This document shows, in pieces, positions 16,611 to 62,411 of a DNA stretch of 64,000 nucleotides. The notes beneath the pieces are model-generated. The model worked only from the letters and a program-made list of their open reading frames with translations. It had not been told where the DNA came from and did not search any database. The stretch is from a virus: the IMG/VR virus record IMGVR_UViG_3300023174_009221. The stretch is one strand, 5' to 3'. The first letter of the stretch is position 1; every line of letters begins with the position of its first letter. The position numbers were made by a program, and so were the translations under genes.

Positions 16611-16898
16611 ATGAAGATATTAAAATTTGCAGAGTTTGAATTAAACGAGTCTTTACCACGTAAAAAGACTGTCGATCAGTGGAATAAACTTAGAAGGATG
16701 ACAAAAGGTGTCGATATAGGTGACCGTATATCTGACTTAAACAAACAGGGAGCAAATATCCAATATTATCAGAATCCAGTAGATACTGGGATTGAATCAT
16801 ATGAAGATTATGAAGAGCATAATAAAAAGTTTGTTCCAAGTTGGAACTTAAAAGGAATGTTGTCTCCGTTTTCTGGTGAAGGGAAAAAGAAGTCATAA
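16611..16898 (+). CDS. hypothetical late protein with N-terminal tag (MKILKFAEFELNES)
   Basis: Start moved to ATG 16611, 4 nt after TTAATATATA (16597-16606); the track start lies inside the terminator. Confidence 0.75.
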   Translation: MKILKFAEFELNESLPRKKTVDQWNKLRRMTKGVDIGDRISDLNKQGANIQYYQNPVDTGIESYEDYEEHNKKFVPSWNLKGMLSPFSGEGKKKS

Positions 16899-16937
16899 AA
16901 AGATATAAATAATTCCGATTGATTTAATATATACTAA

Positions 16938-17342
16938 GTGAAATACATTAAAATATTTGAGAATTTTCTTACTACATCAGAGATAGAATCTATCTTTTGG
17001 GACTTAAAAGACAATGGATTTACTATTGATATTCACGATTTTAAAAATATTGACCAATATCTAATTGGAATAAAAAAGTTTGAAGGTTACTTAAGACCAT
17101 TTTTGATAGACTCTGAAATCATCAGTTCTATTTTAACTTTGGAAAGTTTCGCAGAGGAGCAAGGATTCAAAATTTCTAACATTTCAATAAATCATCCCTA
17201 TCATAAACAAAGTTCAAGAGACGTCACCATTTCAGATGGGGCTTTTTTTGTCAAAAGTGTGTATGGTCCACCTTTTCAACCAGAAAGGGTAAAAGTCGAA
17301 GATAAAGTTATGTGGATATCTATAAAATTAGAGAAAATGTGA
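16938..17342 (+). CDS. hypothetical late protein with N-terminal tag (MKYIKIFEN)
   Basis: GTG start 4 nt after TTAATATATA (16924-16933). Confidence 0.75.
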   Translation: MKYIKIFENFLTTSEIESIFWDLKDNGFTIDIHDFKNIDQYLIGIKKFEGYLRPFLIDSEIISSILTLESFAEEQGFKISNISINHPYHKQSSRDVTISDGAFFVKSVYGPPFQPERVKVEDKVMWISIKLEKM

Positions 17343-17424
17343 AGGAATTAAAGATGCTTAGTCAGAGTAGAGAAGAGTTGGAATTCGCATAGGTATTTAT
17401 CCTGGTTAGAAAAAAAAGGTATAG

Positions 17425-18285
17425 ATGAAGAAACTAAAAAAATATAGCATATTTCTAGAGTCTTTTCGAAAAGACACAGCAGTTTCGCGTGAATATTCTA
17501 TATTTGATTGGTTTGAGGATTTGAAAAGAGATAATTGGAATGCTTCAAATATTGAAAGACATAAAATATGGACTGAACATTTTATTGGCGAGGGTTGGTG
17601 GGATAAAATCACATCACATGTTGATAAAATATTTAAAGCTTTATCAGAAGTAAATATTAGACACATCAAAGATGCTATGCTAGAAGTTTTTGATACTCTA
17701 CCAGAACAAAAAAGTAGAAATATTTATACCGCCATTTTAAATGGAGACTATGAAAGAATTGATGATTCTAATAATTTTAAATTCAACGGCACTATGCCAA
17801 TTATGGATTTAAATGATAAAAATAGAAAAGATTATGTAATCATAAGTATTCTAATATCAATGGTCCATCCAACCCTTTACTATTCTCGTTTCAAAGAAGA
17901 TGCGGTATTAAGAGATACTAAAGAAAGTGAATATGTAACTGACCAGAGATGGCAATGTCAGAATTTTGACTTTGAACAATTTCATAAAACAGGACATCTT
18001 AGAGACTATGAATTTAGTAAAGTTCAAAAGTATTCACCTAAAAATGTCCTTTCAATGTATAGACCAGGTATAGTTATAAACATTGGTGGATGGGGTTCTG
18101 ATTCAAGATACACTGGTGAAATGTATTTAGATGATTTAGAAGCTGCACTAGACGCGGTAATTGAGGTTGTAGAATCAGAGGTTGATTACGAAGAAGTTAT
18201 TTGGCCATATACAAGAGGTGAGAGACATTATGACACATCAAAACCTATATATGAATATGATTTAAAAATATTACTTAAAATGTGA
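17425..18285 (+). CDS. hypothetical protein with N-terminal tag (MKKLKKYSIFLES)
   Basis: 286-aa ORF within the tagged-gene cluster. Confidence 0.75.
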   Translation: MKKLKKYSIFLESFRKDTAVSREYSIFDWFEDLKRDNWNASNIERHKIWTEHFIGEGWWDKITSHVDKIFKALSEVNIRHIKDAMLEVFDTLPEQKSRNIYTAILNGDYERIDDSNNFKFNGTMPIMDLNDKNRKDYVIISILISMVHPTLYYSRFKEDAVLRDTKESEYVTDQRWQCQNFDFEQFHKTGHLRDYEFSKVQKYSPKNVLSMYRPGIVINIGGWGSDSRYTGEMYLDDLEAALDAVIEVVESEVDYEEVIWPYTRGERHYDTSKPIYEYDLKILLKM

Positions 18286-19025
18286 TGAAGTATATAAAGT
18301 CATATAAATTATTTGAATCTGTTAGTAAAATACAGTTTCCAACATATACAGAGTTACATGATTTCTTTATAGAGTTAGAAGATGATGAGATAACTAAATT
18401 TAACTATAATAGTAGTGCCGAATCGCTCAGCAAATTCATTGACGGTGGATATCTTTTCTTTCCACAAAGATGGGATAGAACTATTCAATCACAACTCTAC
18501 TTTGATATGTCTTTTAGAGAAGACTATTTAAATCATAAACCAAAAGAACTAATGGGTGAAACTTGGAGTGAATTTTTTTTGGATCCTCTGACTTTTCCCG
18601 ATAAAAAATTCCTTAGAAGAAGAACTGAATGTATACATTTGGACGATGTAGAACAAAGTGTGACAAATGTAAAACAGCTAGGCCGAAAAGAAAAAACCTT
18701 CAAAGAATTATTTATAGAAGAAATTGAAAAAGGTAATATAAAAGCTTATCCTTTTATTTATATGACATTTGATATATTTCTACCAAAACATTTAGACAGG
18801 GTTATAGAAAGACTAGAAATGGTTTATGAATCAACTGGTTTTAGACCACTTTATGGATTCTGGGAAGAAGATTATGTAGATGAAAATAACGATGGTGTGG
18901 TCACTTTTATAAACTCAAACTTGTGTTTGGTAAATGTTTCGGATGAAGAATATAAAAATCTTATTAAGATATTTGATGATCATAATGTTGATAAACAAGT
19001 AACGAAACATTTTTTAAATCAATGA
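18285..19025 (+). CDS. hypothetical protein with N-terminal tag (MKYIKSYKLFES)
   Basis: TGATG coupling to the upstream gene gives ATG 18285. Confidence 0.75.
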   Translation: MKYIKSYKLFESVSKIQFPTYTELHDFFIELEDDEITKFNYNSSAESLSKFIDGGYLFFPQRWDRTIQSQLYFDMSFREDYLNHKPKELMGETWSEFFLDPLTFPDKKFLRRRTECIHLDDVEQSVTNVKQLGRKEKTFKELFIEEIEKGNIKAYPFIYMTFDIFLPKHLDRVIERLEMVYESTGFRPLYGFWEEDYVDENNDGVVTFINSNLCLVNVSDEEYKNLIKIFDDHNVDKQVTKHFLNQ

Positions 19026-19182
19026 TGTAATCTCTATATTTATACCAATAGAGAAAGAAGAATTACCTTTAATTATAGTGAATTTCTACAATAATTATCT
19101 TAAATATAAACAACTTTATTAATATAAACGAATATAATCTTTATCAGTTAAATGACTGAATATTAAAAAATAAAAAGCAATT

Positions 19183-20154
19183 ATGGCAAATGATGAAATG
19201 GATGACCTATTTAATGGCGGCTTAGACAGCAAAATGAGTTTTTTGAACGAACAAAAAACAACAACAAACAACGACGGTATCTACCGAGTTGACCTTTCAA
19301 AATGTAAGGATAAAAAAAGAGGTTGGAGATCTGTGGTAAGATTATTACCAAATCTAACAAAAGAGGGCAAAGTAGGAGAAAGCGCAATCGAGAAAGTGAC
19401 ACACTATGTCGATATCAAAAACTCTAAAGAGTTGAGCGGATGGTTTGATAGTCCTAAAAACTTCAACGAAAAATGTCCACTTACAGACCTTTACTACACT
19501 ATGCAGAATTCTAAAAATGCAATTCTTATGGAAAAGTCAAAAATGTTGAAGTATTCTAAAAAATACTACTCTTATGTTTTGGTTTTGGAAGACGAACAAC
19601 AACCAGAATTAGTCGGTAAAATTATGATTTTCCAATATGGAAAAACTATCAAAGACAAAATCATGGCTGAGAAAAACGGAGAAATCTCTGGAGTTCCTTG
19701 TAATGTATTTGATCTTTCAGCTGGTAAAGATTTTGTTCTTGTAGTTAAAGAAATTCAAACCGGTGACGAGACTTACCCAGACTATAAAATGAGTATGTTT
19801 AAGCCAGAAACTTCTTCACTTCCTATCTACTTTAAAGAAAAGTCAGTTTTCAAAAATGCACCACTTGTAGATGGAAAAATTGAATCTTCTGTTCAGGCTA
19901 AAATCAAAGAATTTTTACTTGATAGAGACCACGATTTAGAAGAATTTTCAGCTAAAAAACTTACCGAAGAACAACAAGCTAAAATTACCGAGATTACAAA
20001 CTATTTGACCGGTAAAGCTTCTTCGTCTTTTTCAGGTTCAAAATCTGAATCTAAACCAACTCAAGATGATTTTGATTTTGAAGACAATTTCTCATCTTCT
20101 AATCAAAATCCGGCTGTAGAAAGTGAAGAAGATGACTTTTTTGGTGACTTTTAA
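19183..20154 (+). CDS. T4 gp32-like single-stranded DNA-binding protein
   Basis: VRLLP, KYYSYVLVLEDEQQPELVGKIMIFQYGKTIKDKI, FDLSAGKDF, YPDYKMSMF; acidic tail EEDDFFGDF. Confidence 0.88.
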   Translation: MANDEMDDLFNGGLDSKMSFLNEQKTTTNNDGIYRVDLSKCKDKKRGWRSVVRLLPNLTKEGKVGESAIEKVTHYVDIKNSKELSGWFDSPKNFNEKCPLTDLYYTMQNSKNAILMEKSKMLKYSKKYYSYVLVLEDEQQPELVGKIMIFQYGKTIKDKIMAEKNGEISGVPCNVFDLSAGKDFVLVVKEIQTGDETYPDYKMSMFKPETSSLPIYFKEKSVFKNAPLVDGKIESSVQAKIKEFLLDRDHDLEEFSAKKLTEEQQAKITEITNYLTGKASSSFSGSKSESKPTQDDFDFEDNFSSSNQNPAVESEEDDFFGDF

Positions 20155-20180
20155 TTAGCCAAAAAAAAACAACATCGACG

Positions 20181-20210
20181 AAATCCCACAAATTTTTTGT
20201 GGGATTTTTT
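20181..20210 (+). terminator. intrinsic terminator
   Basis: AAATCCCACAAA / TTTGTGGGATTT hairpin with a T tail. Confidence 0.8.
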
Positions 20211-20268
20211 GTTAATAAACAACAAATCGGGTTTATATAATATAACCTATAAATAATTTCCAAAGAAA

Positions 20269-21162
20269 ATGAATTTAGCAAATAAGACTTTTAAGAACAT
20301 CAAAACTGGTGAAGTTATCAAAGTTATAGATTCTTTTGAAGATATAGCAATTCTTGAAAATAAAAAAAAGATGAGCGTCACAGAACTGATAAACTCAAAT
20401 CTTTTTACAGAAGAAATTGATCCTAACAACTTTTTCAACAATCAAAATTCGTATAACCTTTTGGCCGATAAGATAAAAAATATACCAACTGATATGATAA
20501 AAGATGAAGACGGAACGACTCCAATTTCAACAAATATTTACGATGATAACTTCAAACCACTAACTAATGAAAGCGCAATTATCTATTCTTCTGAAGAAGA
20601 TGAAAAAGAAGAACTAATTAGAAAATACAGTCTTAAAGAAGGTTCCACACAACAAGTTAATAGACAAAATGAAGTATTTCAAAAAATATTAGAAGAAGAC
20701 AGACAATCCGACATAAAATCAGAACCGGTCAAATATCAACCACCGGTTTTACAACAAACAGAAGACCCTATTATTTCAATGTTTAAAAGGGCAAAAAAGA
20801 GTGTTGAGTTTAGTATGTCGATAAGTATTGAAAATAAAATACCAAGACTTGATTTTATTGAAATGATGGAGGATTCTTATGATATCTCTATGATTGATTT
20901 TTTAGCCGATGAGTTTACAAAAGAAATCTTACTTGATCCTAAGTTCATTCAACAACAAATTAAAAATAAAATCACAGAAATGGTTTATAGTAAACCAAAA
21001 TCAGATTCACAAATTACAGACTCAGTCACTACTTCTTATGAAAATGTAGTAAATTCACAAATCACAGATTCGGTGACTACTGTAAATACCAACACAGAAA
21101 AAAAACCTACCCCAAAGCCTAGAACTACAAGGGCAAAAAAACAACCGGTGTCAAATGATTGA
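20269..21162 (+). CDS. hypothetical protein
   Basis: 297-aa ORF; duplicated SQITDSVTT peptide; basic low-complexity tail. Confidence 0.75.
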   Translation: MNLANKTFKNIKTGEVIKVIDSFEDIAILENKKKMSVTELINSNLFTEEIDPNNFFNNQNSYNLLADKIKNIPTDMIKDEDGTTPISTNIYDDNFKPLTNESAIIYSSEEDEKEELIRKYSLKEGSTQQVNRQNEVFQKILEEDRQSDIKSEPVKYQPPVLQQTEDPIISMFKRAKKSVEFSMSISIENKIPRLDFIEMMEDSYDISMIDFLADEFTKEILLDPKFIQQQIKNKITEMVYSKPKSDSQITDSVTTSYENVVNSQITDSVTTVNTNTEKKPTPKPRTTRAKKQPVSND

Positions 21163-21547: not shown

Positions 21548-21590
21548 TAGAAACGGATTCAAATTTTATATATAAAATAAAAATCTATTA

Positions 21591-25191: not shown

Positions 25192-25197
25192 TTTAAA

Positions 25198-26587: not shown

Positions 26588-26588
26588 T

Positions 26589-27155: not shown

Positions 27156-27159
27156 ATAT

Positions 27160-27990: not shown

Positions 27991-27992
27991 TT

Positions 27993-34029: not shown

Positions 34030-34782
34030 TTATAATTGTTTTAGAGGATATCCTAACTCTAAGATAAGGTCTTTTAATTCATTATCAGAATTGACTAATG
34101 ATTTTGTTTGGTCAGTAAATTCTACTTGCGACACTCTGTCATTTATTTTCGATTTATCAAGATCTTCAAAAGAACTAACAGTTCCCTTAACTTGTGTATG
34201 GTCCCAAATTTCAAATGTCTTAAAGTTCTCAAAAAGAAATTGTTGTCTTATCTTTGGAGAATTAATCCAATCTTCAAATTTCAAGTGGTGACATTTTCTA
34301 TTAATTATCTCATAAGCTTGTTGTTTCCAGATTTGAATAAAGTGATTAGAAATATCGAATTGTATCTCTTTTCCTTGATTATCAAAAATTCCACCTAAAT
34401 TTTTTTTAACTCTGGAGGCCAAATTATCATAGAAATCCCTAATTAAAATAATCTTATGTCTTTCAATTGGGTAGTCTAAGCCATCATAACAAAAGTCATA
34501 AGGTGTCTGCCAGTTTTTGTCAGGTGAAAAAAGTGAAAAATTAGGTTCTACATTTTCATATCCAACAAACAGGTGTTGTATTCTTTTTCGTCGTTGGGTG
34601 AGATAAGGATGGATTTCGTGCTGGTCAAAATTTGCTTCATTTATATAATATAAATATTTATCTTCAATTTCTTGAAACTTACCCTGCATAGGTAATTCTT
34701 TTCCACAATAATTTTTAATTACCCAATTGATGATTGCGTGGTGTCCAGATCTGGCCAATCCTGTAAATTCAAATAACTTCAT
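34030..34782 (-). CDS. divergent sulfotransferase-fold protein
   Basis: [14 protein letters not shown] (5'-PSB-like), [12 protein letters not shown] (3'-PB-like). Confidence 0.6.
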
Positions 34783-36881
34783 TATTCACCTTTTTTCTTT
34801 CTAACTTTTTTCTTTTTCTCACCTTCAATGGTAACTTTGATTGATTCAGTTGATGGATCAAAATCAAGATTCAATAAAGAACCTTTTTCAGGATTAGATT
34901 GTATGATTTCTTCTGTTAAGACATCTTCGACATTTCGCTGTATGGACCTTTTAAGTGGTCTAGCACCATACTGTGGATCAAATCCTTCTTTTGCAATATG
35001 GTCAATAGCCGATTGTGTGATATTTAGTGTAAATTCCATTTTCTGAACTCTATCAGTTAACTTAGACAACTCAATTTTGATAATCTCATCAATGTTTTCT
35101 TTTGAAAGTGAGTTAAACATAACAACATCATCTACACGATTCAGAAATTCAGGTGAAAATTTCTTTTTCAATTCTTTTTCTATCACCGCCTTAGTGTCAT
35201 CTTCTGCTTGTGCCTGTTTAGTTTTAGTAGAAAATCCGACTCCTGCTCCAAAATCTTTAACTTGTCTAGAACCGGTATTTGATGTCATAATAATAATCGT
35301 GTTCTTAAAATTAACTTTACGACCCAGTGAATCAGTTAGTTGACCGTCATCTAAAACCTGAAGAAGTAGATTGAAAACTTCAGGGTGTGCCTTTTCAATT
35401 TCATCTAATAAGACAACTGAATAAGGTTTTCTTCTGACTTTTTCTGTCAACTGACCACCCTCATCGTGACCGACATATCCCGGAGGTGCTCCAACAAGTC
35501 GAGATACGGCAAATTTTTCCATAAATTCAGACATGTCAATTCTAATTAAAGAGTCTTCTGAATCAAAAAGGTATTTAGCCAACACTTTAGCCAGTTGAGT
35601 TTTTCCAACTCCGGTTGGACCTAAAAACATAAATGAACCAATCGGTCTATTTGGATCCTTTAAGCCAACTCGACCTCTTTGAATAGCTTTAACAATTTTC
35701 TTCACAGCGTCGTCTTGGCCAATCACCTTACCGGAAATAGATTCCAACATTTTAGATAATTTTTCATTTTCATTTTGACTTACCTTAGTTACCGGAATAC
35801 CCGACATCATAGCAACAACTTCAGCCACTGAGTTTTCATCTACTTCGACTCGATTATTCTTTTGGTCATTTTCCCAGTTAACTCTTGCTTCTTCAAGTTG
35901 AAGATTAAGTTGTTTTTCGACATCTCGCAATTTAGCGGCTTCTTCGTATCTTTGACCCCGGATAACATCATTTTTCTTGTCTTTGATTTCAGACAATTTT
36001 TTCTCAACATCTGTAATTTCTTTGGGAACTACAATATTTGAAATATGGACACGGGCTCCAACTTCATCTAAGGCATCGATTGCCTTATCTGGTAGAAATC
36101 TATCTGTTAAATATCTTTCAGTTAAATCAACACAAGCCTTAATAGCATCTTCGGTGTAAATCACATTGTGGTGGTGCTCGTATCTATCTTTTATGTTATT
36201 TAGAATCTGAAAAGTTTCTTCATTAGAAGCTGGTTCAACTTGAACTTTTTGAAACCTTCTTTCCAAAGCACCATCTTTTTCGATATGTTTTCGATACTCA
36301 TCTAAAGTTGTAGCCCCAATGATTTGAATCTCACCTCTAGCAAGCGCTGGTTTTAACATATTTGAAGCATCAAGTGAACCGGAAGCCCCACCTGCACCAA
36401 TGATAGTATGGATTTCATCAATAAAAAGTATGACATCTGGTTCTTTTTCTACTTCTGCCATAAGGGCTTTAATTCTTTCTTCAAATTGACCACGGTATTT
36501 AGTCCCAGCAACCATTGAGGCCAAGTCTAACATAACAACTCTTTTATTAAAAAGTAGACGACTAACTTTTCTTTGAATAATTCTAAGTGCCAATCCCTCG
36601 GCAATTGAAGATTTTCCAACACCAGGCTCACCAATTAAAACCGGGTTATTCTTTTTTCTTCTAGATAAAATCTGGGAAACTCTTTCGATTTCTTTTTCAC
36701 GACCGACAATAGGATCTAATTTATTTTCCTCAGCCATTTTTGTTAAATCACGGCTATATGTGTCCAACACCGGTGTCTTAGACTTTGACTCACTTTTCTT
36801 CTGTGAACCAAATTTATCATCATCGTCATCATCATGCAAAGCGGCTTTGATATCTGGGTAAACTTGTTTTTGATTGTTCAT
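34782..36881 (-). CDS. clpC: ClpC-type AAA+ unfoldase lacking the N-terminal Clp domain
   Basis: Walker A motifs GEPGVGKS and GPTGVGKT, UVR-type middle coil QRYEEAAKLRD, GVGF ClpP-docking loop; only about 35 aa precede TPVLD. Confidence 0.93.
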   Translation of the reverse strand: MNNQKQVYPDIKAALHDDDDDDKFGSQKKSESKSKTPVLDTYSRDLTKMAEENKLDPIVGREKEIERVSQILSRRKKNNPVLIGEPGVGKSSIAEGLALRIIQRKVSRLLFNKRVVMLDLASMVAGTKYRGQFEERIKALMAEVEKEPDVILFIDEIHTIIGAGGASGSLDASNMLKPALARGEIQIIGATTLDEYRKHIEKDGALERRFQKVQVEPASNEETFQILNNIKDRYEHHHNVIYTEDAIKACVDLTERYLTDRFLPDKAIDALDEVGARVHISNIVVPKEITDVEKKLSEIKDKKNDVIRGQRYEEAAKLRDVEKQLNLQLEEARVNWENDQKNNRVEVDENSVAEVVAMMSGIPVTKVSQNENEKLSKMLESISGKVIGQDDAVKKIVKAIQRGRVGLKDPNRPIGSFMFLGPTGVGKTQLAKVLAKYLFDSEDSLIRIDMSEFMEKFAVSRLVGAPPGYVGHDEGGQLTEKVRRKPYSVVLLDEIEKAHPEVFNLLLQVLDDGQLTDSLGRKVNFKNTIIIMTSNTGSRQVKDFGAGVGFSTKTKQAQAEDDTKAVIEKELKKKFSPEFLNRVDDVVMFNSLSKENIDEIIKIELSKLTDRVQKMEFTLNITQSAIDHIAKEGFDPQYGARPLKRSIQRNVEDVLTEEIIQSNPEKGSLLNLDFDPSTESIKVTIEGEKKKKVRKKKGE

Positions 36882-37847: not shown

Positions 37848-39794
37848 TCATATAGTCTCTTCGTCACCACCTTCTAAATAGTCTAAGAGATTTTCTATCA
37901 GGTTATCAGCTCTTTCGAAAAATTCAGAATTTTTAAAAAGTGTCTGATTCGCCACATAATAATTGATTCCCCTATTGGTATAAAAGGCCTCTATCAAGTT
38001 ATCAGGAACAAAAACTCCAGAATATTTCAATTGCATGACATAAGGCATCACCGTTGCCTTTGGATTATTTGAAAATCCATCATCTAAAACGTCACTATAA
38101 GACTGCGGTAATTCTTTTTCGCTATAATCATCAGCTCCGTCGTCACCGTGAACATAAAATGCGGCCACTTTTCCTTCAAGATGATTTCTTAACATATCAT
38201 CAAATTGTCCAGATTTAGCAAATTTACCAGTAATTTCTGGATTTTTTATATTACCATCACCCATCAGTTTTTTAGCATCATCAATTGTCAAAGTTAGATT
38301 GACACAAACTAATCGGTCAAATAAGGCCTTAATTTGAGAAGAAAGGGCGTGCCAATGAATAGGTGAAAAAACAATAAAAGCGTCACATTGTTGAAGAAGT
38401 TGATAAACACCCTCTTCTTTTAAAAGGTCTGGTTTTTGGGTATCTCCTTTAAAATAACATGAACAATTATGAATATTTATACCCTCGCAGTTAAATTGAT
38501 GTGAATTTGAAACCTCTATATCATAAACTGGTTTATATCCAATCTCTTTAATAGATTTTACTTTTGAATATTGATGTTTTAAAACCCTTCTTTCTAAATT
38601 AGAATATTCACTTAATTTTAATCTTTTTTTAATATTCAATAATTTTATATTATCACTAAATATCTTAACAGATTTTTGGTCTGATATCACTAAACAAGAT
38701 GTTCTTTGATGTTTTTTACCTCTAACCAAAATTTCTTTATGACTAATATCTGATATATTAGACCTTATACCAACTCTAGATAATAATAATTGAGCATCTC
38801 TTAAACAATTATAACTCGTATTGTATAGACTTATCTTACCACCTGATATACTACCATCTGTTGATATCCAACCATTGAAAAAGTTAAATATATCAGAGTT
38901 TGATTTAAAAACATTTATATTTAATCTTCTATTCTTAGCTCTTGTTTTTGGTAAGATACTTATCATTTTCTTACCTATTTCCGTACCAAAGTTAATTTTA
39001 ATCATTTCAGTATTATACTCATCATATAAATCATTAATTTTACAAGAATGATCAATTTTATGATCAATTATTGATACGAACTTATCGCTTAAAATACTTT
39101 GTATCTCCTTTATAAAATCAGATTCTTTTTTATCAACATATAATAAAGGCGTATTATTCACGAAAGTACCATCACCCCATATTAATCCATATATTAGAAA
39201 GTCATTATATATAACATCATCATTAAATACATTATCAGTTTCTATATAAGGAATATTATCACCTATTTTTATATTCTGTAACTCAACCCATTCCTCTTTT
39301 CTAAAGAATTTCCAATTAGATTCTTTTGTTCTAAACCTTTCTTTTGATAAAATTTTCACTTTATGTTCATTAGTTAATTCCAACTTTCTACCATCTGTTA
39401 ATTTTAACTCATAGACTAACTCAGAATCAGATGTTCTAACATGATTTAAAACAATATTACCATCTTGTAATATGTCACCTATTTTTAGATTTTGTATTTC
39501 TACAAATCCCTCATTTGTATGAACCCTTTGATCATAAGCAACACACTTAAAATGACAATGGTATCCACCAGCAGTCGATACGCATCCTTTACACGGCTGA
39601 ATTATAGCCTTCTTTTTATGATTTACAGCTAAATCGATTACTTTAAAATTGACAAAAGGCGACCACTTTTCTACTATGTAGTCTACAATCTTGTGAGTTT
39701 TTGAAACCATATGTGAACAGGTGTCGGGGTCTCTTGGAGAACCTTGAAAAACTAAAACCATTGGCTTTATATCACCTAATTTCCTGACTTTCAT
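37848..39794 (-). CDS. NAD(P)H-dependent FMN reductase / iron-sulfur flavoprotein, intein-containing
   Basis: FQGSPR, PCKGC, FSPIHWHALSSQIKALFDRL, LEGKVAAF; 288 aa after intein removal; TTAATATATA upstream (39801-39810). Confidence 0.85.
   Translation of the reverse strand: MKVRKLGDIKPMVLVFQGSPRDPDTCSHMVSKTHKIVDYIVEKWSPFVNFKVIDLAVNHKKKAIIQPCKGCVSTAGGYHCHFKCVAYDQRVHTNEGFVEIQNLKIGDILQDGNIVLNHVRTSDSELVYELKLTDGRKLELTNEHKVKILSKERFRTKESNWKFFRKEEWVELQNIKIGDNIPYIETDNVFNDDVIYNDFLIYGLIWGDGTFVNNTPLLYVDKKESDFIKEIQSILSDKFVSIIDHKIDHSCKINDLYDEYNTEMIKINFGTEIGKKMISILPKTRAKNRRLNINVFKSNSDIFNFFNGWISTDGSISGGKISLYNTSYNCLRDAQLLLSRVGIRSNISDISHKEILVRGKKHQRTSCLVISDQKSVKIFSDNIKLLNIKKRLKLSEYSNLERRVLKHQYSKVKSIKEIGYKPVYDIEVSNSHQFNCEGINIHNCSCYFKGDTQKPDLLKEEGVYQLLQQCDAFIVFSPIHWHALSSQIKALFDRLVCVNLTLTIDDAKKLMGDGNIKNPEITGKFAKSGQFDDMLRNHLEGKVAAFYVHGDDGADDYSEKELPQSYSDVLDDGFSNNPKATVMPYVMQLKYSGVFVPDNLIEAFYTNRGINYYVANQTLFKNSEFFERADNLIENLLDYLEGGDEETI
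38466..39545 (-). mobile_element. 360-aa intein with LAGLIDADG homing endonuclease
   Basis: Block A CVAYDQRV, block B LTNEHKV, LAGLIDADG helices IYGLIWGDG and FFNGWISTDG, block F/G VYDIEV...IHN followed by Cys. Confidence 0.93.
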
Positions 39795-40662: not shown

Positions 40663-40698
40663 GTATCAAATATACAAAAAATTTTTAATATATACCAT

Positions 40699-42636
40699 AT
40701 GATTTTAGATTATAATCGGTTCAAAGATGATTTTCTTTTTGAAAATATGATAAATGAAACTTTTATTTACTTCATAAAAGATTTTAAAGACGTTCTCTAT
40801 AAGTTGTCAAAATCCGGAAATCAAATAGCAACAGATCTAATTGATATAGAGTATAAGGATAGTAAATCTGATAATACATTTATTTCATTAGGCCGAGAGG
40901 GTTATATAACTTATAACAGACTTAGAGATTTAAAAAGAAATATTGAAAAGTCTTTTACAGAATGGGCCAAATCACGAAGTTTATCAGATGAAGACGCTCA
41001 GTCAATATTAGATACTCTTCTTAAAAAAATCGAAAATGGTGAAACTTCGCAATCAGATGTAAATAATCTTTTCAAAGACTACGAATTAGATAAAAAGTCC
41101 AGAAACGAAGTCAAATTAGGGAGATTTGTAAATGCGGTTTTACCCGGTAAGTTCACACCAAAAGACATTGAAGAATTTACTAATCAATTCAAAGCAACTT
41201 TAGAAAAACAGGGCCAACATTTTATGGAAGTTTCTGGTGATGAAATAAATCACTGGTATAACTTTGAAAACTATCTTTCAATGGAAGGAACTCTTGGAAA
41301 CTCCTGCATGGCTCGAAAAAAAGGTATTTTCCAACTCTATGTAGAGAACCCAGATGTCTGTAAATTACTGGTCTTAGTAGAAGATGAAAAGTTAATAGGC
41401 CGAGCACTTGTTTGGAAACTAAACTCAATCAAGTCATATGGTCTTAAGTCAGAGGGCGTATGGTTTATGGATAGGCAATACACTATAAATGATTCGTATG
41501 TGGAAAAATTTAGAAACTACGCAAAAGAAAAAGGGTGGTATTACAAATCATATAACAACCATCATTCACTTACAACAGTGACAGTGGTAGGCGAAGAAAA
41601 GAATTGCGAGATGTCGGTTAAAATAAAATCGGGTAAATACAGTAAATATCCTTATATGGACACATTCAAAAGATATAATCCAGAAGACGGTATGCTATAC
41701 AATGACGAAGGTGATAGTTCTGATTATGAAGGTCAGTTTATCTTAAACGACACTGGTGGTGGATTTGAAGAAATTCGAGGTGGTGTTTGGTCAGAATGGC
41801 ACGATAGAATGATTCCAGAAGATGAAGCAGTGTGGTCTGATTGGGCTGATTCATATCTTCATAGAGACTCGGCTATTTATATTTCTGTAGGTTCTCGTAG
41901 ATACCGTAATAGTTATTATCCAGAGGACTGTGACGACATTGTTTATGATGAGTGGATTGATGAACCCCTCCATGTTGATGATGCGGTTTATTCAGAGCCT
42001 TATGGGTATTATCTTTATGTTGAAAACGCGGTAAGAACAATTGTTGAAATATACTCAGATGGAGATGTTAATCCAGAAGATAATTGGATGCATAAAAATG
42101 ATAGTGACATCATTAAAATTTCAGAATTTGATGATATGTTGTGGTATGAAAAATTATCAGATGAATTTGGAGAATGGACTTATAATGACCACACGCATAT
42201 TGTTAAGTCTAATTTAACCAAGAATTATAAAGAGGAGTGGATTCCAAAAATTTTGGAAACCGAGGTTTATAAAGTTTTAGAGGAGGATCCAAATGATGAA
42301 GTTCCAACTGATTTATTAAAAATTGGAGTTGAATGGCTAACAGAAACAGATGCTCTTATTTTAGGTTGGAAAGTTGATACATCAGAAGAAAGAGTAATTG
42401 ATAAAATTCAATATAATAAAGGTATTGAAAATTTACTTTCGTTACTACTTAGAAAATTAAAACCAAAATTAAGATTCTGGACTGATAAAGTTGAAGGAAA
42501 GGGACAACAAAGATTTCAATTTGAAGAGCCAGAAGGAATTAAAAAGGCTGAACAACTAATGAATGAGAAAATTTTAAAAGATTTAAGAATTAGACAAGAA
42601 GAATTAGATTCTAGAGAATGGATTTACGAAAATTAA
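40699..42636 (+). CDS. large late protein with conserved SCM/RALVW/PYMD phage domain and acidic aromatic repeats
   Basis: GTLGNSCM, IGRALVW, FMDRQY, YPYMDTF; TTAATATATA 4 nt upstream. Confidence 0.7.
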   Translation: MILDYNRFKDDFLFENMINETFIYFIKDFKDVLYKLSKSGNQIATDLIDIEYKDSKSDNTFISLGREGYITYNRLRDLKRNIEKSFTEWAKSRSLSDEDAQSILDTLLKKIENGETSQSDVNNLFKDYELDKKSRNEVKLGRFVNAVLPGKFTPKDIEEFTNQFKATLEKQGQHFMEVSGDEINHWYNFENYLSMEGTLGNSCMARKKGIFQLYVENPDVCKLLVLVEDEKLIGRALVWKLNSIKSYGLKSEGVWFMDRQYTINDSYVEKFRNYAKEKGWYYKSYNNHHSLTTVTVVGEEKNCEMSVKIKSGKYSKYPYMDTFKRYNPEDGMLYNDEGDSSDYEGQFILNDTGGGFEEIRGGVWSEWHDRMIPEDEAVWSDWADSYLHRDSAIYISVGSRRYRNSYYPEDCDDIVYDEWIDEPLHVDDAVYSEPYGYYLYVENAVRTIVEIYSDGDVNPEDNWMHKNDSDIIKISEFDDMLWYEKLSDEFGEWTYNDHTHIVKSNLTKNYKEEWIPKILETEVYKVLEEDPNDEVPTDLLKIGVEWLTETDALILGWKVDTSEERVIDKIQYNKGIENLLSLLLRKLKPKLRFWTDKVEGKGQQRFQFEEPEGIKKAEQLMNEKILKDLRIRQEELDSREWIYEN

Positions 42637-42683
42637 AAAAAATCAAAAAAAAATTAATATATAATAAAAATTAAAATAAAAAT

Positions 42684-43634
42684 ATGAAGTACGTTAAATC
42701 TTATAAATTATTTGAAAGCACTGAGTATAATAAGTCCCAGGAAGTAAATGAAGCCAATATTTTTGGAAATGTTTGGAACAAAATTAAAAATCTTTTCGCA
42801 AGAGGTGTAGATAGAACTACATTGGACTTATGGAAGAAAAATGGATTACCTACATATGGCGAGTTCTATGAAATTTCTTCTAACGAGTATTCTCTATATA
42901 ATCCAACTTTTGGTCAACAACCTTGGAGTAAAAAAATGACTTTATCAGATATACCTGCAGATAAGGTAAGAGAAGTAAGCTCACCGGTAGATTTTCTTCT
43001 TTTGACTGGAAGCTATTTTCAAGATGGAAACTTAGTATATAACTTAGATAGATTAGCAATAGCAAAAGTTTCAAAGAACTTTCCAAAAGCATTTGATTTG
43101 TCTAAACATCCATCTCAGATGTCATTACTTAATTTAAAAGTTCCTAACTTTTGGGGACATCCAGAAATGACAGATAGTGATAAACTTTTAAGTAGAGTCT
43201 TTCAACATGTTGATTTTGAATTTTCAGGAAGCACAATTACTACAGAAACTACACAATGGTCTATGTTAGAACAAGATTGGATAGCTTACAAAGAGCAATC
43301 GGATAGATATGTCCCTTTTAGCGATATTGAATCAGGTGAAATGAAAATGGGACAGCAATACGCCAGTGGTGGTATTGGTGATGTCATGCCAGTAGAATTT
43401 AAAAATGAAGAAGAAAAACAAAAAGAATTTAATAAGATGAAAGCTCATTTTTCATTTAGACCAAAAATGATTACACTTGGAGAATGGTTAAATATATATA
43501 ATTCAAGTCGTCAGAAAAATAATGACTTAATGAAATTAGGTGAAGTTTGGAAAAATGAGCCAAATAAAGATATGTCTTTAGCAAAAACTGAAGAACCAGC
43601 TATGATGGAAAGAAGAAGATATAAAAATAATTAA
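42684..43634 (+). CDS. hypothetical late protein with N-terminal tag (MKYVKSYKLFES)
   Basis: TTAATATATA at 42654-42663. Confidence 0.75.
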   Translation: MKYVKSYKLFESTEYNKSQEVNEANIFGNVWNKIKNLFARGVDRTTLDLWKKNGLPTYGEFYEISSNEYSLYNPTFGQQPWSKKMTLSDIPADKVREVSSPVDFLLLTGSYFQDGNLVYNLDRLAIAKVSKNFPKAFDLSKHPSQMSLLNLKVPNFWGHPEMTDSDKLLSRVFQHVDFEFSGSTITTETTQWSMLEQDWIAYKEQSDRYVPFSDIESGEMKMGQQYASGGIGDVMPVEFKNEEEKQKEFNKMKAHFSFRPKMITLGEWLNIYNSSRQKNNDLMKLGEVWKNEPNKDMSLAKTEEPAMMERRRYKNN

Positions 43635-46179: not shown

Positions 46180-46566
46180 ATGGAAAATCAAAAATTACCT
46201 GATTCTTTTGTGACAGATAGAAGGCTGAGAAGTTATCCAACTGAAATAGGTTCCCAAAATTTTTCACCAGAAGATACTTCGCTATTTAGACTTGAAAAGG
46301 CTAAGGCACTTAAGTCTCACTTCACTCAAAAACTTACCGAGATACAAAAAGAATATCAAAATCTAATTTCGCAAATTTCCATAAATGAAAGGCTCTATTC
46401 AGCAAAAATAAACTTCCAACCGGTAGTAGGTCACATCTACTTTCTCTATTTGTCAAAAAATGGTGAGTTTATTTCGATAATATCTCCAGAAGAATGGAAT
46501 AATAAATTTGAATTAATTGGTAAATTTCAACTGCTATCAGATGGCAGATGGGAAGAAGTTATTTAA
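46180..46566 (+). CDS. DUF2452-like protein
   Basis: FQPVVGHIYFLY..FISIISPEEW..GKFQLLSDGRW. Confidence 0.75.
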   Translation: MENQKLPDSFVTDRRLRSYPTEIGSQNFSPEDTSLFRLEKAKALKSHFTQKLTEIQKEYQNLISQISINERLYSAKINFQPVVGHIYFLYLSKNGEFISIISPEEWNNKFELIGKFQLLSDGRWEEVI

Positions 46567-47971
46567 AACGTTTGCTAAAACTTTCAAAAGTCTCCAGTTG
46601 ATATGTTTTTTGAACTTCTCTATTGCTTTGTAGTTCTTTGCAATGTTCAATAAAATTATCAAATACAGGCCAAGTTTCTTCTAATTCTTCAGGATGAAAA
46701 AGAATACCATATCTTTCTAAATTTGTATTTGATATACCAGAAATTTTACCATCGATATAAGAAATCACCGAAAATCCATCAGGACAGCTGGTTGGAAAAT
46801 CATGAAAACAAAATCTAAATTCAAGCCCTCCAGTATCCACTCCACTAAAAAGAAAATGTGAAGTGTCTGGGTTTTCTAATTTGAAATTTCCACATTTTTC
46901 TGACTCACCTGATATCTCACTTCCGTAAAATTTGGCCATTGATTGAAAACCATAACAAAGTGCTAAAATTGGACAATCTAAATTTTCAAGCGCATACTCA
47001 GATGTCTGATATTCCCTTCTGTCCTCGGGTTTCAACATTCTGTAGTCAGAACCGGTAGAAATTGCTCCTATAATATTGAATTCACTACTGATTCTTTTAA
47101 CATCATCCGGTGTAACTGCTACTTGATAGGGTATATCATTTACTCTTAAGTATCTTGCAACTTTTGGGAAATACTTAAACTGCGGAGATTTTGCATTATT
47201 GATAACCAAAACTATATCATTTTGCTGATAGGATTCTTTATAAGCATTCCCAAACTGAATCAGATCAGATGTGTCATTGTATAAGTGGTCGGTATTATTA
47301 ATTACGTGGTGGTAACTGTCATATTTTTCATCTAAAAAACTAAGGTCACTTTCTGTGATATTTATACCATGTTCAAATGCGTTAAAAAACTTACACAACG
47401 CTGTTATTGATTCGTCAGCAAATCCCCAATGTGTTTCAGAATCATACTTAGCGCCTATACCTGTATAGTGGATAATATTTATTTTATTTGGGGTTTCAAT
47501 TGAAAACTCACACGCCATATGGTCACCGTAAGTAATATCGACAAGTAGTTTAATACCTCTTTCATTTTTTACAAAGTGTATGTCAAATTCCAACATCGAA
47601 GGTTCGCCGTTTTGAAGAGCATCATTTGGGTCTAATTCAGTGGGCTTTGGTCTTTCTAAATCAATATCATCTTGTCGAGCACTATTGTAGAAATAATTGA
47701 ACTGCACAATATCAGCCTCTATTGAACAATCATTTTTATCAAAAATATACTCGGTCGGGTGATCAGTGTCAGTAAGTGTTAAATCCGGATTTAAATTTTT
47801 AAGTTTAGGATTTGAATGTATTATAAAATAATCCGGCAGAAACTTCTCGAACCAATCCTGTTGAAATATTGAAATGGAACCGGGTTTTGAAATTACCCCA
47901 CCCATATGAGGCATAGATTTGTTTCTATAAGGTTTGTTTACACCTTCGTTGAATTTCTTAAGATATTTCAT
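46559..47971 (-). CDS. tagged late protein: unknown N-domain fused to a class I glutamine amidotransferase domain
   Basis: MKYLKKFNE start; PILALCYGFQ (Cys nucleophile) and GILFHPE (His-Glu). Confidence 0.8.
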   Translation of the reverse strand: MKYLKKFNEGVNKPYRNKSMPHMGGVISKPGSISIFQQDWFEKFLPDYFIIHSNPKLKNLNPDLTLTDTDHPTEYIFDKNDCSIEADIVQFNYFYNSARQDDIDLERPKPTELDPNDALQNGEPSMLEFDIHFVKNERGIKLLVDITYGDHMACEFSIETPNKINIIHYTGIGAKYDSETHWGFADESITALCKFFNAFEHGINITESDLSFLDEKYDSYHHVINNTDHLYNDTSDLIQFGNAYKESYQQNDIVLVINNAKSPQFKYFPKVARYLRVNDIPYQVAVTPDDVKRISSEFNIIGAISTGSDYRMLKPEDRREYQTSEYALENLDCPILALCYGFQSMAKFYGSEISGESEKCGNFKLENPDTSHFLFSGVDTGGLEFRFCFHDFPTSCPDGFSVISYIDGKISGISNTNLERYGILFHPEELEETWPVFDNFIEHCKELQSNREVQKTYQLETFESFSKRFK

Positions 47972-48012
47972 ACTAAACTATATATTTTTTTCTGAAGATG
48001 TAATTTTGAAAA

Positions 48013-52142: not shown

Positions 52143-52143
52143 T

Positions 52144-52326: not shown

Positions 52327-52389
52327 TGATTTATATTTTTTAAGATATATATAAATGTATGGACATTCCCAGTAATCAAATCGGATAAA

Positions 52390-52980
52390 TTAAATATTTC
52401 TTAGAAAATTAAAATCTTCAATCTCTAAATTACCTAAGTCGGTAGTAGGTGTTTTTCTACCACTTAATCTAAATCCAAATCTATTAAAAAACGCTACAAG
52501 TTGTCGCACATTTGAATCTTCAAAAGCAAATAGAGTATTACTTGGGTCAAACTTTGAACCATAACTGGTTTGTTGAAAACAATTAACTCCGCTTTTTTCA
52601 TCAATAGTAAACTCACAAGCCATTTCATCACCAAAAGTGATGTCAACATCTAATCTTAAATTTTTATTTTTTGTAAGATCCTCATTTTCATAACTCAAAG
52701 ATCCAGAACTAACCACGGTTGTTGAATCAGCATATGATTTTTCAGTGTCATACTGTGCCATATAGATATCAATTTCAAGTGTATCAGGAGCCCCCTCACC
52801 TTCAAAATAGTAGGTTATTTGTATCATATCGCTATTTAACATAATATTTCCTCGAGTATAGCGGACTCTTTGAATTTCATTATATTGGCCTTTAATAACT
52901 ATTATTTGATTTGGCAGAAAAGATTCCCAGGCCGGATCATAAATGTAAAGTCTTTCATTAAATCTCTTTAAATATTTCAT
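52390..52980 (-). CDS. tagged late protein (MKYLKRFNE), paralogue of the 46559..47971 N-domain
   Basis: Shares VDIT[FY]GD.MACEF and flanking motifs. Confidence 0.75.
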   Translation of the reverse strand: MKYLKRFNERLYIYDPAWESFLPNQIIVIKGQYNEIQRVRYTRGNIMLNSDMIQITYYFEGEGAPDTLEIDIYMAQYDTEKSYADSTTVVSSGSLSYENEDLTKNKNLRLDVDITFGDEMACEFTIDEKSGVNCFQQTSYGSKFDPSNTLFAFEDSNVRQLVAFFNRFGFRLSGRKTPTTDLGNLEIEDFNFLRNI

Positions 52981-52990
52981 ATCTCTTAGT

Positions 52991-53006
52991 TTTAATATAT
53001 ATTAAA
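52991..53006. promoter_or_regulatory. palindromic, bidirectional TTAATATATA motif
   Basis: TTTAATATATATTAAA is a perfect 16-bp palindrome between two divergent tagged genes. Confidence 0.7.
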
Positions 53007-53007
53007 T

Positions 53008-53451
53008 ATGAAATATTTAAGAAAGATATTTGAAAATAACGAAAAAACAATCAAATATGTAGGGGATTGCTTTTTAGATATTTGTGAAAATCCAAACTTT
53101 GAAGTTGATGATTTAGTAGAAATTGATAGTCCAGTCGAGATTGCTCAAACTTTACACGACTTAGAAACTAGTAAAAACCTATCAATCGGTGACGTGATGG
53201 TCTTAAAACTACATATAGAATTGGGTAAAAAATTATCTTTTTCACAACCTATTAGTTCAAATCTTTATATCGGAAAAGTTAAAACTGATCTAGAATTTTT
53301 AAGAATGAAAAATGATAAATTGACTGAGTTATATAATGACATAGAAGTGGCTTTAAATAGAATAAAAGATGTATTTGATTGGAAGTCTGATTTTATAATA
53401 AAAGCTAATAGAAGAGAAGAAATTGATATCATAATACTAATTATAAAATAA
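53008..53451 (+). CDS. tagged late protein (MKYLRKIFEN)
   Basis: 147-aa ORF after the palindromic motif. Confidence 0.75.
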   Translation: MKYLRKIFENNEKTIKYVGDCFLDICENPNFEVDDLVEIDSPVEIAQTLHDLETSKNLSIGDVMVLKLHIELGKKLSFSQPISSNLYIGKVKTDLEFLRMKNDKLTELYNDIEVALNRIKDVFDWKSDFIIKANRREEIDIIILIIK

Positions 53452-53463
53452 AATTTAAAAATC

Positions 53464-54434: not shown

Positions 54435-54519
54435 ACGATTATAATATAATTTTTGAAATAAGTTTATCAAATAAGAGTTTAATAAATAATATATACACCA
54501 TAAAAATAAAATCATTTTA

Positions 54520-59814: not shown

Positions 59815-60027
59815 TTAACCACCAAATACATCAGTGACTCTACCAAAGCTGACTCTAAAGTTTAGTCGTCTTGCATCAACTGACATATCCAACATGTGTT
59901 GTATTCCATCAGTTTCTACTATTCTGACTACAAATCCACCATCATTTGCCCATTTGGTGGCATCTTCTATTGTTTTTCCGACATATTCTTCTTTAGATAT
60001 AATTCCAGAATTTCTTAATTGTTCCAT
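59815..60027 (-). CDS. potato inhibitor I / I78-like protease inhibitor fold protein
   Basis: EYVGKTIEDA..VRIV..G..MLDM....RRLNFRV..GRV....G pattern. Confidence 0.6.
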   Translation of the reverse strand: MEQLRNSGIISKEEYVGKTIEDATKWANDGGFVVRIVETDGIQHMLDMSVDARRLNFRVSFGRVTDVFGG

Positions 60028-60068
60028 AATAATTTTTTTTAATATATATCTAAAAAAGACGGTAAGTT

Positions 60069-60329
60069 ATGCCATCAGTATCAAAAAAACAACAAAGACT
60101 TATGGGAATGGCTTATGCTTGGGCTAAGGGCGAAATGCCAGGGGCTTCAAAATCAGTAAAGGATCTAGCCAACTCTTTTCTAAAAGGCAGTGACAAAAAG
60201 AAACCAGCTAAAGACTCCAATACCTATAGGAGAAGGTTGAAAAAACTAAGAGATTTTGCAGCAACAAAACATGATAATCTTCCTGAAAAAGTTTCAGAGA
60301 ATCACATTCTAAGATTTACAGAGTTCTAA
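60069..60329 (+). CDS. DUF3008-like small basic late protein
   Basis: MPSVSKKQQRLMGMA..LRDFAATKHDNLPEKV; TTAATATATA at 60039-60048. Confidence 0.7.
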   Translation: MPSVSKKQQRLMGMAYAWAKGEMPGASKSVKDLANSFLKGSDKKKPAKDSNTYRRRLKKLRDFAATKHDNLPEKVSENHILRFTEF

Positions 60330-60566
60330 CTATTTCGACTCTGGTTTTAATCCCCTATCTCCAATTAATTTCATTTTTCTCCCGTCGCTCCATATAAAGG
60401 CCTCATTGGGTGAAATCATCTGAAATGAATCACATTCAACATATGTTACGGTGTAGTTAATGTTATCACCTTGGCAAACACCAATTGTAAAATTTTTTTT
60501 CCTTCTCGGGCCTACACAAGAAAAAAATGTAGATAGAATCACCAATACGAATAAACTTTTTTTCAT
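60330..60566 (-). CDS. small lipoprotein
   Basis: MKKSLFVLVILSTFFSC signal peptide with lipobox-type Cys. Confidence 0.7.
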   Translation of the reverse strand: MKKSLFVLVILSTFFSCVGPRRKKNFTIGVCQGDNINYTVTYVECDSFQMISPNEAFIWSDGRKMKLIGDRGLKPESK

Positions 60567-60576
60567 ATATTATACT

Positions 60577-60690
60577 TTAAGCAGTTTTGTTTTTATGTTT
60601 TTCTTTTCTGGAGTATGTTTTCTTACTTTTCTCAATTTGAGGTCGAGTTGCTGCCCAGATTTCTTGAAGAGTAAGTTGAATTGTTTTCAT
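60577..60690 (-). CDS. 37-aa ArfA-like basic peptide (MKTIQLTLQEIWAATRPQIEKSKKTYSRKEKHKNKTA)
   Basis: Below the ORF-track cutoff; own -7 TATCTTTG at 60711-60718; R..IEK.KK..Y.RK.KH pattern. Confidence 0.6.
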   Translation of the reverse strand: MKTIQLTLQEIWAATRPQIEKSKKTYSRKEKHKNKTA

Positions 60691-60779
60691 TTGTTCTACT
60701 TTTAATTATTCAAAGATAGTAAATTTTTCTTAGATAAAAAAAAATAAAAAAAAATAAGAAATTTTTTATATATAGTCAT

Positions 60780-62411
60780 ATGAGATATTTAAAATTATAT
60801 GAGGCCTTTTCTTCCAAGGGCATTTCTAAAACTATAAATTTTTTATCACAAAAAATATCAAGTCAATCGAAAGAAAAATTCTTAGAAGATCTAAAAGAAT
60901 TTATGCAAAATTCAGATTATCCGCTAAATAAATTAACGGATGACTTTATACAATATCTACCGTTCAAAAAGGCTATTTTATTAAAAAATGACAAAGATGT
61001 GTCCAACAGAAAGGGTATCTGGGTAATTAAATATTGGTTTTCAGTTGAAAATGGCTATTTAGGATATACCGCAACAGGAAATAAAACATACACCTTTCGA
61101 GAACCAAAAACAATCCATAACAGCCCAAATAGAAAAGACCCACCCTTCACTAATCGAGAGTTAGACTATATCAAAAAAAATATTACAGAAACCGGTATAA
61201 TCTGCAGAGTAACAGACTATAGTAAATTAAAAACCGGTCAAGTTGTAATTGGTATATTTGGTGGTGACATTGCGATAGCTACTGTTTATGTTGATAACAG
61301 AGATAGAGTCTACGCCATACAGAATGTAGCATCTGGTTCGTATCCATCAGACTCAGGTTGGCGTGAATACACAGAATACGGTGACCAATCTTGGTATATT
61401 TATGAACCAAGAACTATACCAGATGACCACGAAAAGCTTACTTTTTATACACCAGGTGATGAACCACTAAGATATGAAGAAAAAGAAGAGCCATCGCAAT
61501 CAGAAAATCTGTCTCATCTGAATTGGAATTTACCTTTAGACTATAATTTTAACCAAGTAATATGGTCTGACTCTGATATGAACTCCATTTCAAGTTATAA
61601 AGAAGTTAGTAATGCTGACTTTGCTTTAGTTTTAATGTATGATGATTTATTGAATCCGGATGTAGATGCTCCCACTTTTGAGCCAGTATCGGATATCAAA
61701 AAATTTAGAGAGGAGTCAAAATCTGGGTCAACTCACTTTATGACAGATGAAGAGATAGCTAAGTCTAATTATAACAGATTAATGGATAGGTTAATTTCTA
61801 TTTATGGTCTGGAATTGAAATCTCAAGAGCAGGATTTATTGAATTTACAAAAATTATTTTCCACTTTTTTATGTGGAGAAAAAATCCTTTACAGTTTAAT
61901 TGCAGGCGAACCAGACACTGAAAATATTTATCGGTTTGAACAAAATATAAAATATTTGATAACATGTGAAGATGATGAGGAATCAAAAAAGTGGGCCTTT
62001 GAAAAAGTCAAAAAAAGCTTTTTTTCATATAAAGAGGAATCAAAAAAATATGTTGATAGATTTTCTGGATCTTTAAAAAGAGTTCAGGACGAGGGCGACG
62101 AAGAAACGATTGAAATTTTTGATAAACTATCAAAACTAAGTAAAAAGATTTTACAACTTATTTTTATAAAACCCGTAACAACTCTTAATGAATTAAGATA
62201 CTTACTGTCTAAAATATACAGTATAACTTATTACTACTCAAAAACCGATAAATCAAGAGGCCTTTACAAAGTATTCAGTAATATAAAATTTAATGATAGT
62301 GACGTATCAGATGGTATAGGTATAATGGCAAAAAGAACGCAAGTAGAAATAGAAGAAGACAGAAAATTCGTTGACGAATTAGAAAAATACATTTTACAGC
62401 TGTTAGGTTAA
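60780..62411 (+). CDS. tagged late protein (MRYLKLYEAF)
   Basis: TTTATATATA 5 nt upstream; 543-aa ORF. Confidence 0.75.
   Translation: MRYLKLYEAFSSKGISKTINFLSQKISSQSKEKFLEDLKEFMQNSDYPLNKLTDDFIQYLPFKKAILLKNDKDVSNRKGIWVIKYWFSVENGYLGYTATGNKTYTFREPKTIHNSPNRKDPPFTNRELDYIKKNITETGIICRVTDYSKLKTGQVVIGIFGGDIAIATVYVDNRDRVYAIQNVASGSYPSDSGWREYTEYGDQSWYIYEPRTIPDDHEKLTFYTPGDEPLRYEEKEEPSQSENLSHLNWNLPLDYNFNQVIWSDSDMNSISSYKEVSNADFALVLMYDDLLNPDVDAPTFEPVSDIKKFREESKSGSTHFMTDEEIAKSNYNRLMDRLISIYGLELKSQEQDLLNLQKLFSTFLCGEKILYSLIAGEPDTENIYRFEQNIKYLITCEDDEESKKWAFEKVKKSFFSYKEESKKYVDRFSGSLKRVQDEGDEETIEIFDKLSKLSKKILQLIFIKPVTTLNELRYLLSKIYSITYYYSKTDKSRGLYKVFSNIKFNDSDVSDGIGIMAKRTQVEIEEDRKFVDELEKYILQLLG

Follow-up and report, generated by a model that had tools for sequence, protein, structure and literature searches.

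The short N-terminal peptide examined here recurs at the starts of proteins with different bodies in a 64,000-nucleotide (nt) stretch of viral DNA, IMG/VR record IMGVR_UViG_3300023174_009221 (hereafter the window, meaning the whole stretch). It is best compared with the capsid targeting sequence (CTS) of bacteriophage T4, for which Mullaney and Black 1996 is reportedly the source. In T4, the CTS is carried by the internal proteins (IPs) IPI, IPII and IPIII and by Alt, and is cut off by the prohead protease gp21 (PMC9026906, PMC3012670). Mutagenesis has assigned targeting to residues 4 and 7 and processing to residues 8 and 10 (PMC9026906), which match the conserved hydrophobic/aromatic and Glu positions of the tag described below. 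In phiKZ, 201phi2-1 and SPN3US, many head proteins are processed after Glu by a gp21-related protease, and the SPN3US paralogues gp53 and gp54 have identical short N-termini (PMC5694885). Indeed, the gp21-family proteases of all four phages cut after Glu within a short motif (PMC5694885). However, the propeptides of phiKZ, 201phi2-1 and SPN3US are mostly longer than 100 residues, carry the cleavage motif A/S/G-x-E and belong to 8-19 processed proteins, and none of these phages has the genome-wide short tag found here. In the papers that we searched, the tag strings were absent, as was any mention of capsid-targeting tags for megaphages.

We propose, as a reading with about an even chance of being right, that the shared peptide works as a propeptide for capsid targeting, like that of T4, on an expanded set amounting to about one gene in eight. 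By its sequence matches, the window phage is a relative of the megaphages LR745206 (635 kb) and LR756502 (642 kb), uncultured and of the ~600-kb class. These two 'uncultured phage' genomes match a conserved 713-amino-acid (aa) protein of the window, and about 38% of one 8-kb window stretch matches both; LR756504, LR756501 and LR756500 show weaker matches. Phages of the LR745206 type were described as huge phages by Al-Shayeb et al. 2020 (PMC7162821). LR745206, a complete relative with 907 genes, was used for genome-wide tag counts.

An earlier note, made from the letters of this DNA, had claimed a common N-terminal tag on about ten late proteins, and all ten N-termini that it quoted are present where it placed them. 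When every ATG and GTG position in the six frames of the window was searched with the expression ^M[KR][YKI][ILV][KR].{0,6}[FYL].?E, nine of 3,145 matched, and all nine are starts of long open reading frames (ORFs). The general form in these nine genes is M-[KR]-Y-[ILV]-[KR]-x(0-4)-[FY]-x(0-1)-E. A profile hidden Markov model built from LR745206 tags and then run on window starts scored eight of them at 15.8-20.6 bits and the start at 16611 weakly, at 6.4 bits. It gave no score to the gene at 40699, whose paralogue family begins with a looser variant of the tag (MISRYNKFRENLLLES, MILLKYNEYITEK). None of the approximately 15 window genes of confident known function is tagged.

The claim held when the profile was run over the relative: 112 of 907 LR745206 N-termini reached at least 8 bits, compared with 4 of 2,805 internal-Met controls (0.14%). 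A strict form of the expression matched 56 of 36,555 ATG/GTG positions in that genome, 55 of them gene starts. About 12% of LR745206 genes (about one in eight, ~100) are tagged; they occur in every 50-kb bin and are locally clustered, in arrays of up to five. LR756502 and LR756500 carry the tag too. The observation of the tag is thus confirmed far beyond chance.

Could such a pattern arise from base composition, as a by-product of AT-rich starts, or act at the RNA level as an initiation element on leaderless or nearly leaderless late mRNAs? The genome has a GC content of only ~31%, many untagged genes also begin MK, and many start codons come only 4-7 nt after a promoter-like motif, which could make their mRNAs leaderless. 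Yet not one of the ~3,100 non-start ATG/GTG positions in the window matches, and the internal-Met controls do so at the low rate given above. Further, the synonymous codons used at the conserved K, Y, L, F and E of the tag follow genome-wide usage, which argues that constraint acts on the peptide and not on the RNA. The conserved Phe/Tyr and Glu also lie 7-11 codons into the gene. A tag scan of the Tenacibaculum phage PTm1, a cultured, T4-like jumbo phage with 29.7% GC, found none, even though PTm1 has the same base composition and the same host phylum as the tagged lineage. This excludes the AT-rich start bias that the earlier note had itself raised. Window starts, internal-Met controls, codon usage and PTm1 together largely refute an origin in composition or mRNA, which we consider very improbable.

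The proteins behind the tag are diverse. In LR745206, blast sorted 101 tagged bodies, with lengths of 63-555 aa, into 89 clusters. In the window, the bodies had been described as dissimilar, and with the first 15 residues removed blastp agrees for all pairs except 46559-47971 (-) and 52390-52980 (-), which are related at E=8e-15. The body of the 16611 protein and the C-terminal domain of a 211-aa tagged LR745206 protein share 78% identity, and 17425 is homologous to residues 128-409 of a tagged LR745206 protein of 410 aa. Since these homologues differ in architecture, the tag stays fixed at the N-terminus while the domains behind it shuffle. A further claim, that no metabolic gene is tagged, fails, because one tagged protein has a glutamine amidotransferase (GATase) domain of metabolic type (PF00117). 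Of the 113 homologue clusters in this GATase family, 50 carry the tag; a clade of ~30 (392 aa) has neither the tag nor the N-domain.

A 543-aa family, comprising 62 clusters on contigs of up to 617 kb, retains M[KR]YLK[LF]YEAF down to 23% identity, with E8 and F10 invariant. In its AlphaFold2 model, the mean predicted local distance difference test (pLDDT) score is 85.8, and residues 1-7 fall below 50. A Foldseek search of this model against the PDB found no fold match. Judged from the model, the tag seems to behave as a conserved, disordered linear docking motif.

These data bear on a second alternative, in which all tagged genes belong to one old, fast-diverging paralogue family whose N-terminus is the last conserved piece and has no address role. 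Tandem arrays are what such a history would leave (36 adjacent tagged pairs in LR745206, against 11 expected), some tagged proteins do share domains, and duplication is clearly frequent in the lineage. However, a single family is difficult to reconcile with 89 clusters among 101 bodies of such different lengths, or with the same body domain standing at varied distances behind the tag. Homologous GATases exist with and without it, conservation ends abruptly after 9-12 residues, and the tag is disordered in the model and not part of the fold. We regard common descent of the tagged genes as quite improbable. The earlier note's description of a modular label is supported by the 89 clusters and the shuffled domains.

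What the tagged proteins do is largely opaque. Pfam matches were obtained for 5 of 99 tagged LR745206 proteins, compared with at least 21 of 99 random untagged controls; the matches comprise two NUDIX, one Peptidase_M15_4, one DUF6576 and one Galactosyl_T. Pfam and PHROGs searches of the tagged bodies in the window returned almost no matches, and the ESM Atlas gave no result for the 42684 protein. Tagged proteins are mostly ORFans and, if they are cargo, a functionally opaque one.

Tagged genes are associated with a promoter-like motif, as had been claimed for the window. There, [AT]ATATATA lies within 45 nt upstream of seven of nine tagged genes and 13 of 60 untagged genes (p=0.0017), and the two motif-free tagged genes, 17425 and 18285, come after 16938 in the same direction. 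In LR745206, TAATATATA stands directly upstream of 41% of tagged and 12% of untagged genes (p=4e-11). Counting genes that lie no more than four co-directional genes from a motif, the figures become 88 of 101 (87%) and 308 of 806 (38%; p=1e-21). The same TAATATATA also heads the portal, protease, capsid and head-decoration-like genes of LR745206.

In the window, motif and start codon are separated by either 4-7 nt or 15-24 nt, a bimodal spacing. Should the motif be a -10-like element, the shorter class would produce leaderless or near-leaderless mRNAs. Following the gene for ribonucleotide reductase (RNR) beta is a terminator-like hairpin, CCCACTTAA/TTAAGTGGG with a T-run, at 16567-16598; this hairpin and TTTAATATATA are directly upstream of 16611. 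Because the hairpin lies just before the motif, the ATG at 16611 is favoured as the start over the GTG at 16584.

The head module, protease and scaffold were read from the genomes of the relatives. In LR745206 the head genes stand in T4 order: portal, S77-like protease, Gp23 capsid protein. The first of these matches phrog_213 and can be aligned to T4 gp20 (E=4e-21), and the last has a Gp23 score of 88.7 bits. The protease is a 707-aa ORF whose N-terminal part matches Peptidase_S77, with an (E/D)HP catalytic-His motif aligned to T4 gp21. In LR756500 the S77 match reaches 44.8 bits, above the Pfam cut-off of 27. These matches support a T4-type head module with a gp21-family protease in the lineage, as known from the relatives.

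Unlike its T4 counterpart, the megaphage protease is fused to a repeat-bearing, scaffold-like region. Behind the protease domain are 10-12 tandem 14-residue repeats, NIAYSEY[IL]AE[N/S/H]LDK, which are kept in LR745206, LR756502, LR756504 and LR756501, degenerate in LR756500 and different in PTm1. The LR745206 ORF probably joins protease and scaffold in one protein that brings its own cleavage sites. The repeat core Y-S-E-Y-I-A-E has the same seven-residue pattern as the T4 CTS MKTYQEFIAE, which we verified at the starts of T4 ipII and ipIII. In T4 the pattern [YF]xE[FY][ILV]xE occurs at these two N-termini and one other site only, so T4 offers no precedent for a CTS-like scaffold repeat.

In LR745206, ten occurrences of the pattern are in the repeats and 12 are elsewhere, seven of the latter in the N-terminal 20 residues of a protein (p=3e-5). 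LR756500 has 11 occurrences, nine of them N-terminal (p=1e-8), and its dominant tag is MKYIKEYEEF[IL][LN]E (MKYIKEYEEFILE). The pattern belongs to a minor tag class in LR745206 and to the main one in LR756500. In nearly every tag the first Glu is residue 8, 9 or 11. The residue after it (P1') is Ser in 46% and Asn in 17%, which may be compared with AE-N and AE-S in the repeats. That the main tag copies the scaffold repeat is not supported: the repeat profile reached at least 2 bits in 18 of 907 N-termini and in 25 of 2,805 controls.

Like the tag, the T4 CTS is an N-terminal peptide of about ten residues on unrelated, fast-evolving bodies, with hydrophobic or aromatic residues at about positions 4 and 7 and a Glu at its end. 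The consensus is MKY[ILV]K-x-[FY]-x-E in the megaphage and MKTYQEFIAE or MKTFKEF in T4. In both, the genes lie in tandem arrays, and T4 shares with the megaphage relatives a portal, a Gp23 capsid protein and, probably, a gp21-family protease. They differ in scale, with ~100 tagged genes (12%) in the megaphage and 3-5 in T4. A tag profile built from megaphage sequences only, when run on 1,671 T4 starts, gave as its best start-anchored matches ipI (MKTFKEFTST, 8.7 bits, joint first) and gp61.1 (MKTFKEFIKED); ipII and ipIII were not picked. Gene 61.1 (NC_000866, 18966-19130, -) encodes a hypothetical 54-aa protein whose start is nearly the IPI leader, and gp61.1 may be an unrecognised CTS-bearing protein of T4.

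If the tag does direct proteins to the prohead, tagged genes would share their TAATATATA-type promoter with the head genes. The tag, as a flexible linear motif with hydrophobic or aromatic residues at positions 3-4 and at 7 or 10, would dock its protein onto the scaffolding core while the prohead assembles. The gp21-family prohead protease would then cut after the conserved Glu, at position 8, 9 or 11 and followed mostly by Ser or Asn. The processed protein would stay inside the head, and might enter the host along with the DNA. Core binding, cleavage, retention in the head and injection are the steps that we infer.

A second label appears at the opposite end of other proteins. The C-terminus of approximately 22 small LR745206 proteins reads R-[DN]-x-K-[IL]-x-x-L-G-I. 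Like the tag, this is a short terminal peptide on unrelated proteins (about 20 in each genome); it is known from this lineage only, and we know of no analogue. Among the 26 LR745206 proteins with LGI near the C-terminus, one carries the N-terminal tag, and the ending of that one does not fit the motif. The C-terminal label and the N-terminal tag are mutually exclusive. In the window, the proteins at 1195-1779 (+) and 1776-2090 (+) end in a variant of this label, ...IRDLKLKRTIKQ and ...YRDSKIKQILA.

Several observations weigh against capsid targeting. Tagged LR745206 proteins are acidic, with 18% D/E and 13% K/R, rising to 22% D/E in residues 12-40; T4 internal proteins, in contrast, are small, basic and DNA-associated, whereas the megaphage tagged proteins range widely in length. 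Enzymes without obvious use in injection are among them (GATase, NUDIX, galactosyltransferase), and an M15 peptidase is tagged as well. To our knowledge, tags on ~12% of genes go far beyond any known packaged set. The S77 matches in LR745206 and LR756502 are 22.7 and 20.1 bits, below the Pfam cut-off. The repeat profile is not significant on the main MKYLKxFNES tags and matches only the minor Y-x-E-[FY]-I-x-E class. The P3 position is hydrophobic in only ~72% of LR745206 tags, although it is so in nine of nine window tags. Finally, head and tagged genes do not have the promoter-like motif to themselves: it stands before UvsX in the relative and, in the window, before RNR beta (15583) and a homing endonuclease (13802-15481, -). 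That the tagged genes are late, as the earlier note held, gains from the motif they have in common with head genes and loses from its presence ahead of RNR beta and the homing endonuclease; with UvsX also behind the motif, lateness is plausible and not proven.

The same observations lend some weight to a third alternative, that the tag docks its proteins to some late partner other than the prohead, such as an assembly chaperone, a membrane, an intracellular compartment, or a phage Clp-type unfoldase or protease that would time their degradation. Any docking role would suit a conserved linear motif that is disordered, and the number, acidity and enzyme content of the tagged proteins fit T4-type cargo poorly. 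A ClpB/ClpC-like AAA+ protein is encoded in the window (34782-36881) and ClpP in LR745206, and the existence of a second, mutually exclusive C-terminal label suggests that address labels need not all be capsid labels. However, no candidate reader besides the head module has a sequence link to the tag. The Glu at its end, its length of ~10 aa, its likeness to the IPI, IPII and IPIII leaders and the CTS-like repeat in the protease ORF all point to the head. As for Clp docking in particular, the Clp degrons that we know of are N-end-rule residues or C-terminal tags, not M-K-Y-L-K. We consider a partner outside the head unlikely.

Tentatively, and with less than even confidence, we suggest from these sequences that more than 100 different proteins, ready-made enzymes among them, may be loaded into the capsids of this megaphage lineage by a T4-like address peptide, and that the C-terminal label may mark another destination.

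The window has a GC content of 29-39%. It encodes a T4-type gp32, RNR beta, DnaJ (full length, 2112-3182, +), SmpB (the partner of transfer-messenger RNA; 62408-62842, -), thioredoxin and a ClpB/ClpC-like ATPase with two AAA domains, on the minus strand. Also encoded are GDP-fucose pathway enzymes, two DNA methylases, the homing endonuclease and a collagen/tail-fibre-like protein of 1,764 aa. An intein splits a flavodoxin/FMN-reductase-like gene at 37848-39794 (-) and contains a homing endonuclease domain of the LAGLIDADG type. LR745206 encodes EF-G-like and DnaK-like proteins in addition to ClpP. The tagged genes, their promoter-like motifs and the protease ORF are listed in the table.

Table. 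Tagged genes and promoter-like motifs of the window, and the protease ORF of relatives.
Feature	Position	Strand	Score or basis
Tagged ORFan, 95 aa, MKILKFAEFELNES, weak tag variant	16611..16898	+	profile 6.4 bits
Tagged ORFan, 134 aa, GTG start, MKYIKIFEN	16938..17342	+	profile 19.5 bits
Tagged ORFan, 286 aa, MKKLKKYSIFLES	17425..18285	+	profile 16.6 bits
Tagged ORFan, 246 aa, MKYIKSYKLFES; start overlaps stop of preceding tagged gene	18285..19025	+	profile 20.5 bits
Tagged ORFan, 316 aa, MKYVKSYKLFES	42684..43634	+	profile 20.6 bits
Tagged protein, 470 aa, MKYLKKFNE; N-domain in common with 52390-52980, C-terminal class-I glutamine amidotransferase	46559..47971	-	profile 19.6 bits
Tagged ORFan, 196 aa, MKYLKRFNE	52390..52980	-	profile 18.0 bits
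Tagged ORFan, 147 aa, MKYLRKIFEN, divergent from 52390-52980	53008..53451	+	profile 15.8 bits
Tagged conserved megaphage protein, 543 aa, MRYLKLYEAF	60780..62411	+	homologues, AlphaFold2 model
Member of multi-copy family, 645 aa, looser N-terminal variant MILDYNRFKDDFLFEN	40699..42636	+	no profile match; 8 LR745206 paralogues
Promoter-like AATATATA, 4 nt before ATG of 16611	16599..16606	+	
Promoter-like motif, 4 nt before GTG of 16938	16926..16933	+	
Promoter-like motif, 20 nt before 42684	42656..42663	+	
Promoter-like motif, 7 nt before start at 47971	47979..47986	-	
Palindromic AATATATATT (TTTAATATATATTAAA), motif on both strands, in 27-nt gap 52981-53007 between divergent tagged genes	52994..53003	.	
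Promoter-like motif, 5 nt before 60780	60767..60774	+	
Promoter-like motif, 4 nt before 40699	40687..40694	+	
Protease ORF with ~500-aa fused region: repeats, then poly-acidic stretch	LR745206 198546-200669 (L004); also L003, L072, L073		

Should the tag prove to be an address for the phage head, the packaged and possibly injected proteome of uncultured viruses would be readable from sequence alone. The protein cargo of the largest phages would then be an order of magnitude more diverse than that of any studied phage, and the tagged genes would form a catalogue of candidate host-takeover and anti-defence proteins. The tag itself would be a natural, portable packaging label for phage engineering. 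Such a system would also help to explain much of the 'dark' coding capacity of megaphages.

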